Source: Planctomycetota bacterium | Lineage (GTDB): Bacteria; Planctomycetota; PLA2 | Direction: 5' to 3' | Assembly (NCBI GenBank): GCA_039182715.1 | Contig: JBCDBY010000002.1 | Location: 1 to 47,680, forward strand | DNA length: 47,680 nt | In this document: positions 18,725 to 23,748 of the stretch, one piece after another | Layout of the letters: each line of letters opens with the position of its first letter | How positions within the stretch are numbered: position 1 is the first letter of the stretch | Program-made: the position numbers and the translations under genes | Notes under the pieces: generated by a model | Databases searched by the model: none | Told to the model about the DNA's origin: nothing | Seen by the model: only the letters and a program-made list of their open reading frames with translations

Positions 18725-19534
18725 ATGAACGTGCTTCGAATTGCTCTCTGTCTCGCCCTGTCCTGCTTCGTGATCGCCTGCGGCGGTTCCGAAGAGCCGA
18801 AGAAGACCGCCCCCGCGCCCGCCGCGGACGACGGTGGTTCCGAGGAGGAGTCGTTCGGTCGTCAGACCTACTCCGCCGACAAGGGCAGCGCCACCGTGTC
18901 CGGCACCGTGAAGTGGAGCGGCAAGGCGCCCAACCGTCGCCCGCTCGACATGGGCTCCGACAAGTTCTGCGAGAAGTGCTACGAGGGCCAGGAGGCCCCG
19001 CGCTCGATGTCCGCCGTCGTTGGTGCCAACGGCGAGTTCGCGAACATCTTCGTCTATGTCAAGAACAGCGGCGACATGAAGAACTGGAAGTTCCCGAAGG
19101 GTTCGTCCACGCGCGTGATCGACCAGGTCAAGTGCATGTACACGCCGTACCTGATCGGCGTGCAGACCGGCGACACGCTCGAGATCCGCAACAGCGACCA
19201 GACGCTGCACAACATCCACGCCACGAAGGATGGCAACGACTGGTTCAACAAGGCGCAGCCGGCCGGCTCCGACGCCTACACGACGACCGTCACCGAGGCG
19301 GGCATGTTCACGCTCAAGTGCGACGTGCACAGCTGGATGAAGTCGTTCATCTGCGTCGTCGACAACCCCTTCTTCGCCGTGACCGGCGAGGACGGCAAGT
19401 TCTCCATCCCGAGCCTGCCCGCCGGCAGCTACACGCTCGTCGCCTGGGACAGCCGCAAGGGCAAGGAGATGACCAAGGACTTCACCGTCTCCGACGGTGG
19501 CTCCGCCACGGTCGATTTCGAGTTCAGCAAATAG
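18725..19534 (+). CDS. Lipoprotein with cupredoxin-like and carboxypeptidase-regulatory-like domains
   Basis: RBS AGGAGA, lipobox VIAC, DQVKCMYTP, NSDQTLHNIH, KCDVHSWM, PFFAVTGEDGKF. Confidence 0.82.
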   Translation: MNVLRIALCLALSCFVIACGGSEEPKKTAPAPAADDGGSEEESFGRQTYSADKGSATVSGTVKWSGKAPNRRPLDMGSDKFCEKCYEGQEAPRSMSAVVGANGEFANIFVYVKNSGDMKNWKFPKGSSTRVIDQVKCMYTPYLIGVQTGDTLEIRNSDQTLHNIHATKDGNDWFNKAQPAGSDAYTTTVTEAGMFTLKCDVHSWMKSFICVVDNPFFAVTGEDGKFSIPSLPAGSYTLVAWDSRKGKEMTKDFTVSDGGSATVDFEFSK

Positions 19535-19541
19535 GAGCCTG

Positions 19542-20354
19542 ATGGAACCGCGAAGCCGCCCCCGCATCATCCTCGGTCTGGTCGCCTTCTTCGGCCTGAT
19601 CACCCTCTTCACCGTCGGGCTGTTCATGCTGCCCTGGCGGTCCGAGGTCGCCTCCGATGAGGGGGGCGGCATCGACGCGGTCATCACCTATCTGCTCGTG
19701 GCGACGGGCGCCCTCGTGGTGCTCGGGCACTACGTGCTCATCCGCTTCCTCTGGAACGGCAACGGCGAGAAGGGGTACACCCGGCCGACGCCCAAGGTGG
19801 AGTGGATGTGGGGCATCATCCCCGTCGTCATCATGATGATCCTCTCCGAGGCGGGCGTGCTGGTCGTCGGCGCGCCCACCTGGAAGAAGCTCTACGTCGA
19901 TCGCGCCGAGAACCCGGTGCAGATCGAGGTCGTCGGCAAGCAGTTCCAGTGGTACGTGCGCTACCCCGGCAAGGACGGCGTGTACGGCGACTACGACTTC
20001 GAGGAGATCGACGGCGCCGACAATCCGCTCGGCCTGCTCGACGACAGCGACGCCGCGGTCGACGACATCGTCACCTCCAAGCTGCGGCTGCCGCTGGGTC
20101 GACCGGTGCAGATCCGCATGCGCACGCACGACGTCATCCACAGCTTCTTCGTGCCGGACTTCCGCGTGAAGCAGGATCTCATTCCGGGCTTCCCGACCGA
20201 GATCCGTTTCACGCCGACGAAGCTGGGCGAGTACGAACTCGCCTGCTCCGAGCTGTGCGGCCTGGCGCACTACCGCATGAAGGCTCCCGTGCTGGTGATG
20301 GAGCCCGAGGCGTTCGACAAGTGGTTGGCCGCGCAGCGCGGTTACTTCGAGTAG
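19542..20354 (+). CDS. coxB: Cytochrome c oxidase subunit II
   Basis: Two TM helices, QFQWYVRYPG, CuA ligands DVIHSF and CSELCGLAHYRM; no fused cytochrome c. Confidence 0.95.
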   Translation: MEPRSRPRIILGLVAFFGLITLFTVGLFMLPWRSEVASDEGGGIDAVITYLLVATGALVVLGHYVLIRFLWNGNGEKGYTRPTPKVEWMWGIIPVVIMMILSEAGVLVVGAPTWKKLYVDRAENPVQIEVVGKQFQWYVRYPGKDGVYGDYDFEEIDGADNPLGLLDDSDAAVDDIVTSKLRLPLGRPVQIRMRTHDVIHSFFVPDFRVKQDLIPGFPTEIRFTPTKLGEYELACSELCGLAHYRMKAPVLVMEPEAFDKWLAAQRGYFE

Positions 20355-20366
20355 GAAGGCAACGGC

Positions 20367-22619: not shown

Positions 22620-23252
22620 ATGAGTCTGACCGCACAGACGTCGTTCACGCCGGAGCGCTGGCAGGGAGGCCTCAGCCCCTACAACCAGACCTGGCAGAAG
22701 CTGATGATGTGGATGTTCATCGTCGGCGATGCGCTGCTCTTCGGCGGCTTTCTCGCGGCCTACGGCTTCACCCGCCACGGCGCGGGCGACGCGTGGCCGG
22801 TGGTGCTGGGCGAAGGCGGCCTCTTCAGCACCGGCCTGCTCACGACGATGACCTTCGTGCTCATCACGAGCAGCGCCTTCATGGCGTGCGCGGTGTCCGC
22901 CGCGAAGGCAAACAACCGCGCCGAGACGGTGAAATGGACCTTCCTCACGCTGGCCGGCGGCGTGGTCTTCCTCGGCATGCAGGTCTACGAGTGGAGCCAC
23001 TTCATCGGGCAGGGCGCGCGCCCGTGGTTCACGCCGGGCGGCGCGGATCCGGGGTTCGCCGCCTACTTCTTCCTGATCACCGGCTTCCACGGCACGCACG
23101 TGCTCATCGGGCTCATCGTGCTGCTGGTCACCGCGCTCAACGCGAAGCGCCGTCCGGAGCTCAATCCGAACGGCGTCGAGGTCGCGGGCCTCTACTGGCA
23201 CTTCGTCGACCTCGTCTGGGTCTTCATCTTCGGCTGCTTCTACCTGCTCTAA
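22620..23252 (+). CDS. coxC: Cytochrome c oxidase subunit III
   Basis: [38 protein letters not shown]. Confidence 0.93.
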
Positions 23253-23254
23253 CC

Positions 23255-23539
23255 ATGGACGCCACGATGGACGCCACCGCAACCGCTTCCGCCCCGAACT
23301 ACAAGAAGATCTGGAAGGCGTGGGCCGCGCTGCTGGTCATCACGGTCGCCATGGTCTTCCTGCCGCACAACCTCTGGACGATCATGATCGGCATCCTGTT
23401 CAAGGTCGTGATCATCGCCGGCATCTTCATGGACCTGAAGGACGAGACGCTTGACTTCGTGATGATCGTCGGGTTCAACGTGCTCTTCTTCGCCATCCTG
23501 CTCTACGCGCTGATGGTGCCCGACGGGCTGGTGATGTGA
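23255..23539 (+). CDS. Cytochrome c oxidase subunit IV family protein
   Basis: YKKIW..LLVIT, KVVIIAGIFMDLK, three TM helices, operon position. Confidence 0.8.
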   Translation: MDATMDATATASAPNYKKIWKAWAALLVITVAMVFLPHNLWTIMIGILFKVVIIAGIFMDLKDETLDFVMIVGFNVLFFAILLYALMVPDGLVM

Positions 23540-23748
23540 TGATGCGCTGGTTGCTGACGCTACTCGTGCTGCTCGCGATGGTCACCATCGCGCGCGGCCA
23601 GGGGTGATGACCCGACGTCGGGGATGTCCCCGAGAATGCCCGTCGGGTCGACGGGATCCTGAAAGCCGCTGCCCTTCTGACGACGACCGCCCTGGTCGTG
23701 GGTAGCGCCGTGGTCTACGTGCTGCGGAACCAGGTCAAGGACGAGTAA
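23539..23748 (+). CDS. Small exported, membrane-anchored protein with tandem in-frame TGA-TGA (candidate Sec-Sec selenoprotein, 69 aa)
   Basis: TGATG coupling to subunit [78 protein letters not shown]; hairpins follow the UGAs. Confidence 0.65.
23608..23655 (+). promoter_or_regulatory. Candidate SECIS-like hairpin(s)
   Basis: GACCCGACG/CGTCGGGTC lower stem, TCGGGG-ATGT-CCCCGA upper stem; alternative CCCGTC-GGGTC-GACGGG hairpin at 23639-23655. Confidence 0.5.

Follow-up and report, generated by a model that had tools for sequence, protein, structure and literature searches.

The stretch of DNA analysed here (the window, 47,680 nt, to which all coordinates refer) belongs to a metagenome-assembled genome (MAG) of a planctomycete and carries at positions 18725–23748 a cluster of seven genes for a heme-copper oxidase. 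As a whole, the cluster is best explained, with a probability of roughly 0.7, as an operon for an A-family oxidase without the K-channel lysine (K-less), closed by an accessory peptide with two neighbouring selenocysteines (Sec, or U). From sequence comparison the cluster is predicted to be a single operon encoding a CuA-containing heme-copper oxygen reductase of the A-family (HPEVY-type), within a widespread clade in which the K-channel lysine is lost and the D-channel kept. Its last gene contains two adjacent TGA codons, which very probably encode a pair of neighbouring selenocysteines. The seven genes are all on the + strand and tightly packed, with intergenic gaps of -4 to 22 nt. The features are the following:

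18725–19534, + strand: lipoprotein with a cupredoxin (type-1 copper) domain in its middle part and a C-terminal CarboxypepD_reg/Ig-like domain (lipobox, Pfam)
19542–20354 (alternative GTG start at 19497), + strand: coxB, CuA subunit II, no cytochrome c domain (COX2, E 1.1e-13)
20367–22094, + strand: coxA, A-family subunit I (COX1, E 4.8e-132)
22091 (GTG overlapping the coxA stop) or 22139 (ATG) to 22597, + strand: subunit-III-like gene 1 (COX3, 17.8 bits, below cut-off)
22620–23252, + strand: subunit-III-like gene 2 (COX3, E 3e-20)
23255–23539, + strand: probable subunit IV (coxIV), 94-aa membrane protein (COX4_pro, 20.9 bits, below cut-off)
23539–23748, + strand: peptide gene, 69 codons in the read-through frame with TGA = U; no family
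23605–23610, + strand: tandem in-frame TGA TGA, proposed Sec-Sec (same codons in orthologs)
23618–23633, + strand: hairpin 1, TCGGGG-ATGT-CCCCGA (folding, pairing in 15 sequences)
23639–23655, + strand: hairpin 2, apical stem-loop resembling a selenocysteine insertion sequence (SECIS), with a GGU loop (folding, compensatory changes)

The reading frame continues past two TGA codons

The ATG of the peptide gene overlaps the TGA stop codon of coxIV by one base. Under genetic code table 11 the open reading frame (ORF) ends after 22 codons at TGA TGA, and read-through adds 44 in-frame codons up to a TAA. The resulting peptide displays a signal peptide, the motif Q-G-U-U, a conserved P.VGD.PE..R.V.GI stretch, a C-terminal transmembrane helix and a charged tail.

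The read-through peptide was searched in 61 related genomes, and matches were counted at E<0.02. Seven matches were obtained, including the window itself, all from the same taxonomic family. In 7/7 of them TGA TGA occupies the same two codons, in frame and with both flanks conserved. The contig of genome G001 ends exactly at the TGA pair. A profile built from six of the seven same-family peptides was then applied to 401 genomes of the phylum; it also detected UU peptides in G111, G063, G068, G178 and G382, together with CU peptides (cysteine followed by Sec) in G391 and G366. Furthermore, 80 homologous coxA loci were fetched, the operon genes were mapped on them and subunit I was aligned; here the peptide gene was identified by searching six-frame translations with a hidden Markov model and then checking the loci by eye. 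The two samples overlap, as several entries of both carry identical peptides (that of G366 is identical to the one of locus L084). Because the same two codons recur in six other genomes of the family and in further loci, the tandem TGA is not considered to be a product of chance.

Downstream of the TGA codons, the window has a GC content of 0.79/0.43/0.83 at the three codon positions (GC1/GC2/GC3). A comparison of 14 orthologs gives 1416/1029/1831 differences at the first, second and third positions, as well as 814 synonymous codon differences. TGATGA is unchanged in a 248-nt contig with about 92% identity, obtained from an unrelated sediment metagenome, and 8/8 listed substitutions inside its ORF are synonymous, although this is a single observation at a depth of about 2. 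Another genetic code, with TGA read as Trp or Gly, was also considered and was rejected, since this codon serves as the stop of coxA and of coxIV within the operon.

Orthologs carry cysteine at the TGA codons. Both positions are cysteine (CC) in loci L083, L086 and L091, and the first one (CU) in 9 loci as well as in G391 and G366. The presence of cysteine orthologs at the position of a UGA is the classical criterion for selenocysteine. On such comparative criteria the peptide gene would be classified as a selenoprotein gene.

Selenocysteine machinery and SECIS-like hairpins

The genes selB, selA and selD were found in one row on contig C177 of the same genome (positions 648–4866; loci L009, L010 and L017). 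There is no tRNA-Sec near them on that stretch of the contig. SelA was detected in 19/19 other searched genomes with a U-bearing peptide, in 2/2 genomes with a CC peptide and in 5/9 with a CxxC peptide. In the two most complete same-family genomes with a UU peptide, a tRNA-SeC(tca) was identified with Rfam scores of 70.8 and 65.7 bits and confirmed by ARAGORN.

Hairpin 2 lies 28–31 nt after the TGA codons and displays G-first or GGU-type loops (e.g. GGGUC, UGGUA, GUG). According to the consensus given in a 2026 review, the apical loop of bacterial SECIS elements has a G as its first or second nucleotide and is located 16–37 nt from the UGA, and the loop features of hairpin 2 fit this description (PMC13188914). 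In 15 ungapped sequences 78.3% of the cells are paired overall, with 86.7% for hairpin 1. Changes on both sides occur in 5/12 pairs overall, and they are compensatory in 3/6 pairs of hairpin 2. The covariation score of 0.247, compared with 0.135 for shuffled alignments, was matched by 0/500 shuffles, while slid pairing partners reached at most 0.13. Subgroups whose amino acids differ in this segment (RLVGG, AGVARG, RLAGG) have all kept a hairpin. The CC locus L086 has no comparable structure, with a folding energy of -14.6 versus -24 to -41 kcal/mol; with these few controls, the contrast between CC and U loci may be taken as suggestive. The selD gene on C177 has its own in-frame TGA, behind which come a small hairpin and then a second one of 6 bp with the loop GUU, at about 33 nt from the UGA. 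The two-hairpin layout behind the TGA codons of the peptide gene is the same as that behind the TGA of selD in this genome.

The layout of the cluster agrees with the original prediction, which had described seven tightly spaced, co-oriented genes with these contents. Support for the candidate diselenium peptide proposed there now comes from Cys/Sec orthologs, a SECIS-like element, the Sec machinery and the conservation of the coding frame.

A large family of small, probably exported membrane peptides

All forms of the peptide share the same plan. A basic start is followed by a hydrophobic, signal-like segment ending in A-x-A. A Gln, the chalcogen pair and a short acidic or Pro-containing stretch (SPEG or GDxPE) come next, and the peptide ends with a transmembrane helix with an invariant Pro and a basic tail. 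With the Cys form, 3,804 representative clusters were found at E<=0.001, of which 918 at E<=1e-10. No model of Pfam or NCBIfam matches the peptide. The source names of the family members are nearly all 'hypothetical protein' and none is informative. On the basis of these searches the peptide appears to represent a large, unnamed family located at the 3' end of this type of operon in several phyla, so that a widespread oxidase operon is closed by a family which has so far no name.

The peptide gene is located at the operon 3' end in most of the 80 coxA loci. The 21 loci labelled Planctomycetota comprise 11 with UU, 9 with CU and one with CC (L086). The peptides of L083 and L091 are also of the CC form. 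Locus L091 is labelled Acidobacteriota and L083 'Alcaligenaceae', while the coxA genes of both nest in the Planctomycetota-type clade, which points to either binning or label errors or gene transfer. The motif A-Q-C-[AP]-M-C-[RK] was detected in at least 34 further loci, all at the operon 3' end; these include Acidobacteriota, loci with unclear labels, one Kryptonium and two of the three Sphingobacteriia loci that retain the K-channel lysine. With one CC locus counted in, a Cys form is present in at least 35 loci besides the 21 labelled Planctomycetota. The pattern in these loci indicates a Q-C-x-M-C pair in Acidobacteriota and Bacteroidota and a vicinal CC, CU or UU pair in Planctomycetota. 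A Cys motif was found at the peptide position in 0/13 loci of Gemmatimonadota. Downstream of the second coxIII-like gene, five Gemmatimonadota loci (L111, L112, L133, L104 and L114) have a small ORF with a similar transmembrane helix and basic tail; it shows neither a Cys/Sec pair nor a clear signal peptide.

A related type of small peptide was also recovered among the 401 genomes, with the motif U-P-x-C-K in G005 (L058), G358 (L065) and G091 (L077), and C-P-N-C-K in G057 (L057) and G127 (L061). These motifs correspond to a UxxC/CxxC pair straight after the signal peptide. The peptide of L058 is flanked by cupredoxin-lipoprotein homologs and that of L061 by cox genes; in three of the five loci there is no cox-like gene within 1.5 kb. 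The UU and CU peptides of Planctomycetota, probably read as Sec-Sec and Cys-Sec, are derived from the widespread unnamed CxxC peptide of the K-less oxidase operon.

Proposed working of the peptide

The TGA TGA pair would be recoded through the downstream SECIS-like hairpin and the SelA/SelB/SelD proteins of the genome. The conserved A-x-A|Q site suggests that the peptide is exported and cleaved after A-x-A, remaining anchored by its C-terminal helix. The Q-x-U-U end of the mature peptide would then lie in the periplasm near the copper sites, where it may load or maintain CuA/CuB as a Cu(I)-binding or a thiol/selenol-redox accessory. A function of this kind is the best guess because a chalcogen pair is a ligand for soft metals and because the operon has no gene for SCO or PCuAC; it is proposed here with a chance of about one in three. 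The N-terminal dithiol or diselenol suggests that the biogenesis of the oxidase includes a step of copper handling or redox chemistry which would be unlike the SCO or PCuAC routes. The complete picture, i.e. a periplasmic Sec-Sec peptide produced with one distal SECIS and acting as selenium-based Cu(I) chaperone or redox guardian of a D-channel-only oxidase fed by a blue-copper lipoprotein, is slightly more doubtful still. If true, it would provide the first vicinal diselenol/diselenide motif in prokaryotes.

The main alternative to the Cu(I)/redox accessory is a fixed redox-active subunit. The peptide would then belong to the oxidase in fixed stoichiometry, as a structural or redox subunit that might, for example, tune the electron entry at CuA or scavenge reactive oxygen species there, and would be no factor for copper delivery or assembly. 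As the last gene of a structural operon, translationally coupled to coxIV and conserved at the 3' end in more than 50 loci, the peptide gene is well placed for such a role, and the conserved transmembrane helix, in which a Pro and a Leu are invariant, suggests that it has a constant partner in the membrane. However, no observation places the peptide in a complex, and operons of the same clade in Gemmatimonadota have only a small transmembrane peptide devoid of the motif. The chalcogen pair would therefore be dispensable for the core enzyme. Taken together, a fixed subunit is considered rather unlikely, although it comes nearest to the accessory role.

Subunit I retains the catalytic site and lacks the K-channel lysine

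CoxA aligns to the solved A-type enzymes 6adq, 2yev and 1m56 with E values from 4.4e-109 to 2.2e-91, the best match being CtaD of M. smegmatis (6adq, E 4.4e-109). Its score against the NCBIfam model CtaD_CoxA is 543, for an equivalog cut-off of 670. The histidine ligands of heme a, heme a3 and CuB are kept, the motifs TMHGT, GHPEVY, WGHHMF and GHFH being aligned to those of CtaD, and the six heme/CuB histidine positions are invariant in 46 members of the clade. CoxA also has the D-channel Asp (in GARDMAYP), both the cross-linked Tyr and the Glu of the HPEVY motif, and the Arg pair of the solved chains. Both GHPEVY and GARDMAYP were found in every one of the 80 loci where the region was covered. 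A 12-residue insertion (FVTEMVVNDQVL region; about residues 232–243 of CoxA, window positions 21060–21100) was observed in the loop before HPEVY relative to the solved A-type oxidases; it is kept in the consensus of the clade.

The K-less coxA announced in the original prediction is real: the lysine of the K-channel is replaced by Leu (ITAPFAILGVN versus IAVPTGIKFFN of M. smegmatis CtaD), the stretch reading IAVPTGIKFFNW in the solved enzyme and ITAPFAILGVNL in the window. In addition, the Thr of PTG is changed to Phe, and the position of the helix-VI serine is also hydrophobic. Besides the window, the equivalent of the lysine is L, I, V, F or Y in 77/80 homologous loci, which span Planctomycetota, Gemmatimonadota, Acidobacteriota and others. 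It is Lys in three Sphingobacteriia loci only (L153, L155 and L156). These alignments indicate that the K-less oxidase is a broad clade and no oddity of this one genome.

In model A-type enzymes the lysine of the K-channel is held to be necessary for the reduction of the active site. The clade can be regarded as a natural experiment on proton delivery in an A-type oxidase lacking the K-channel. No paper on naturally K-channel-less A-type oxidases turned up in the literature search.

The check for a second, canonical oxidase proposed in the original prediction was positive. Another subunit I gene of A2-type (YSHPAVY), which keeps PSAVKVFNW, is located on contig C48, and a third one, of cbb3-type, on contig C33. 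As had been noted there, no gene for cytochrome c, SCO, ctaA or ctaB is present within the cluster of the window; SCO, ctaA and ctaB are located on C48 together with the A2-type gene.

The enzyme could instead be a detoxifying one, such as a nitric oxide reductase (NOR) or a peroxidase, and no respiratory O2 reductase. Heme-copper families without canonical proton channels, including detoxifying enzymes, are known. All three K-channel residues that were checked are hydrophobic, and the genome holds two other oxidases. This reading is nevertheless improbable: the O2-reductase site is intact, with all three histidines of CuB and the HPEVY tyrosine in place, and the Asp and Glu of the D-channel are conserved. 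The Tyr is kept, whereas the NOR families lack the tyrosine cofactor; in the section of PMC11214002 that deals with them, cNOR, qNOR, eNOR, sNOR, gNOR and nNOR are described as having either lost the active-site tyrosine or altered their set of metal ligands.

Lipoprotein and subunits II to IV

The first gene of the operon codes for a protein with the lipobox VIAC behind an N-terminal signal peptide. In Pfam it matches Copper-bind with 21.8 bits (cut-off 21.2) and CarboxypepD_reg with 35.7 bits, while it reaches 17.7 bits against the amicyanin equivalog model (cut-off 110). The pattern of type-1 copper ligands H-N...C-x2-H-x2-M is kept in 27/27 homologs. A profile of these homologs matches the blue-copper structure 5fc9 in the PDB (E 1.5e-7) and amicyanins (E 9e-5 and weaker), and its C-terminal part matches Ig-like CarboxypepD_reg repeats. 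The predicted features make it a credible membrane-tethered type-1 copper protein. Besides the copper ligand Cys199, the cysteines at residues 82 and 137 are invariant in 27/27 homologs, and could be joined in a disulfide or make up a second metal site. In two Planctomycetota loci (L106:3407–5098 and L107:2593–4885) two tandem cupredoxin lipoprotein genes are located upstream of coxB.

In CoxB, the CuA ligand set H...CxExCxxxHxxM is present (DVIHSF and CSELCGLAHYRM), and CxxCH is absent. The residues H214, C249, C253, H257 and M260 are invariant in 46 sequences. The NCBIfam CoxB model gives 135 bits (cut-off 147.7). Because of the position of its gene and the lack of a cytochrome c, the lipoprotein is a plausible electron donor to CuA. 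Electrons would enter from this membrane-tethered blue-copper protein and would be transferred from CuA to heme a and to heme a3-CuB, where O2 would be reduced with all protons delivered via the D-channel or a substitute route.

Subunit-III-like gene 1 gives 46.7 bits with aa3_CtaE_Actin, below the cut-off, and gene 2 is CyoC/QoxC-like with 100 bits. For subunit IV, both COX4_pro (20.9 versus 28.9 bits) and caa3_sub_IV (21.3 versus 37.25 bits) remained under their cut-offs, and the name is a probable one given by size, topology and position only.

Strength of the double-selenocysteine reading

Several points weigh against the interpretation of the last gene as a double-Sec accessory peptide. 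The apical loop lies about 34–38 nt from the two UGA codons, i.e. at the upper edge of the range of 16–37 nt in the SECIS part of the review, and an adjacent-Sec prokaryotic family is absent from its Table 1, so that decoding of two consecutive UGA codons has no catalogued precedent (PMC13188914). The hairpins overlap conserved codons, and the protein may explain part of their conservation. As controls, the hairpins could be compared with only two or three CC loci, among which L083 has a strong but different hairpin. The contigs of the sole RNA run fall on conserved parts of subunit III alone. Searches of this MAG, whose completeness is 82%, revealed no tRNA-Sec. Finally, the function proposed for the peptide was drawn from synteny and motif chemistry only.

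Some of these points would be expected if TGA TGA were a true double stop, leaving a leader-like peptide of 22 residues followed by a conserved but untranslated RNA element (terminator or regulator). The missing tRNA-Sec, the two stable hairpins behind the TGA codons and the use of TGA as an ordinary stop of coxA and coxIV all agree with it. This possibility is nonetheless very improbable. The 44 codons downstream keep their frame, their length and the pattern of a transmembrane helix across phyla, with substitutions that are mainly third-position and synonymous. In CC and CxxC orthologs, the N-terminal part and the downstream codons are contiguous and free of stops, and in CU orthologs a Cys codon stands at the first TGA position. 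A promoter and terminator scan of positions 18300–24300 revealed a number of sites not above that of shuffled sequence, with no T-run terminator behind the hairpins. The reading of the TGA pair as Sec-Sec is preferred.

K-channel loss and selenocysteine state

The original prediction went one step further and proposed that K-channel loss and the Sec peptide together define an undescribed oxidase subtype. This part did not hold. In the synteny survey both features were distributed independently, which is the outcome named beforehand as speaking against the proposal. The equivalent of the lysine is a residue other than Lys in the same 77/80 loci whatever the state of the peptide, as K-less loci end in a CxxC, CC, CU or UU peptide or in one without Cys motif, and a CxxC peptide is also present in two of the three K-retaining Sphingobacteriia loci. 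A coxA tree was calculated with FastTree and rooted with the A2-type gene of the genome. In its topology, the operons with a vicinal pair form one clade, sister to Gemmatimonadota, with C and U states interleaved inside, and the K-retaining Sphingobacteriia branch near the base, together with one K-less locus. Since the K-less state extends across all peptide states and C and U are interleaved in the coxA tree, K-channel loss and Sec state appear to have evolved independently. Co-adaptation of both traits is scarcely credible, as their joint occurrence in the window and in 20 TGA-bearing loci labelled Planctomycetota is set against the K-less loci with all other peptide states, the scatter of C and U within a single coxA clade and the CxxC peptides of K-retaining Sphingobacteriia.

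Gene order and genomic surroundings

Across the 80 homologous loci the general gene order is coxB, coxA and two coxIII-like genes. The position of subunit-III-like gene 1 is kept in most of them, and that of subunit IV is also conserved. The lipoprotein gene joins the operon in loci of Planctomycetota type and in a few Acidobacteriota loci. The nearest relatives of the coxA gene of the window are found in Planctomycetota MAGs, and the planctomycete-specific families PSCyt1, PSCyt2/PSD1 and DUF1501 are encoded by neighbouring genes.

These families form a planctomycete-typical trio at positions 3723–8252 on the - strand, consisting of a PSCyt1 cytochrome c protein, a DUF1501 protein and a PSCyt2/PSD1 protein. 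A 417-aa polytopic membrane protein without Pfam family is encoded upstream of the operon at 16388–17641 (- strand). At 24942–27404 (- strand), a gene codes for an 820-aa protein with an N-terminal PHP-like part and a GT4 glycosyltransferase, and a DUF493 gene follows. A homolog of the 417-aa protein is located beside the operon in 2/80 loci only (L078 and L152), while the USP gene and the downstream genes are syntenic with the operon in 0/80 loci. For this reason, the flanking genes were not counted as parts of the system. A scan of the window with Rfam gave no family at gathering score, nor was a tRNA detected.

Comparison with known systems

Subunit I is closest to that of A1-type aa3 oxidases (M. 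smegmatis CtaD 6adq, Thermus caa3 2yev and Rhodobacter 1m56), with which it shares the histidines, the Tyr of HPEVY, the Asp and Glu of the D-channel and the Arg pair. It differs from them by the changes of Lys to Leu and of the PTG Thr to Phe, by the hydrophobic helix-VI site and by the 12-residue insertion. Of the features tested for membership of the A-family, the K-channel lysine is the only one that the oxidase lacks. Alternative oxidase operons of the coxMNOP type from Bradyrhizobium reportedly also contain two subunit-III-like genes, and are said to follow the same order of subunit II, subunit I and two subunit-III-like genes. The operon of the window goes beyond this type with the cupredoxin lipoprotein, subunit IV and the chalcogen peptide.

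Auracyanin, halocyanin and sulfocyanin are membrane-tethered blue-copper donors to oxidases, and the lipid-anchored lipoprotein resembles them in its tethering. The C-x2-H-x2-M spacing and the H-N motif are shared with amicyanin and other type-1 copper proteins. In contrast to proteins of the amicyanin and auracyanin type, the lipoprotein has additional beta-sandwich (CarboxypepD_reg-like) flanks, and its role as donor is putative.

The mitochondrial copper chaperone for cytochrome oxidase, Cox17, binds Cu(I) via two adjacent cysteines. Like the peptide in its predicted form, it is small, has a vicinal chalcogen pair, resides in the compartment which CuA faces and is associated with cytochrome oxidase. 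There is no homology between the two: Cox17 is a soluble protein of CHCH fold, whereas the peptide is predicted to be anchored in the membrane, and copper binding by the peptide is putative.

With regard to selenoproteins, no paper on a cox-linked selenopeptide or on adjacent Sec residues in prokaryotes turned up in the literature search. The 2026 review tabulates 119 prokaryotic selenoprotein families with motifs such as CU, UxxU, UxxC and similar, and with no UU (PMC13188914). The peptide matches none of the 119 families in its Table 1, and a double-Sec peptide would add a new kind to the bacterial selenoproteins catalogued so far. It would make testable the question whether the bacterial SelB/SECIS system can insert Sec at two consecutive UGA codons, for which the natural series of CC, CU and UU orthologs offers ready-made controls. 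The nearest counterparts are the bacterial selenoproteins with a vicinal Cys-Sec pair, namely SaoC, SaoL, HgcA, MbdU and a form of the CopZ family, and most CU families of that table handle soft metals (PMC13188914, Table 1). None of them is related in sequence to the peptide or is a small peptide with signal peptide and transmembrane helix encoded in an oxidase operon, but they have in common with its CU orthologs a Sec placed directly beside a Cys.

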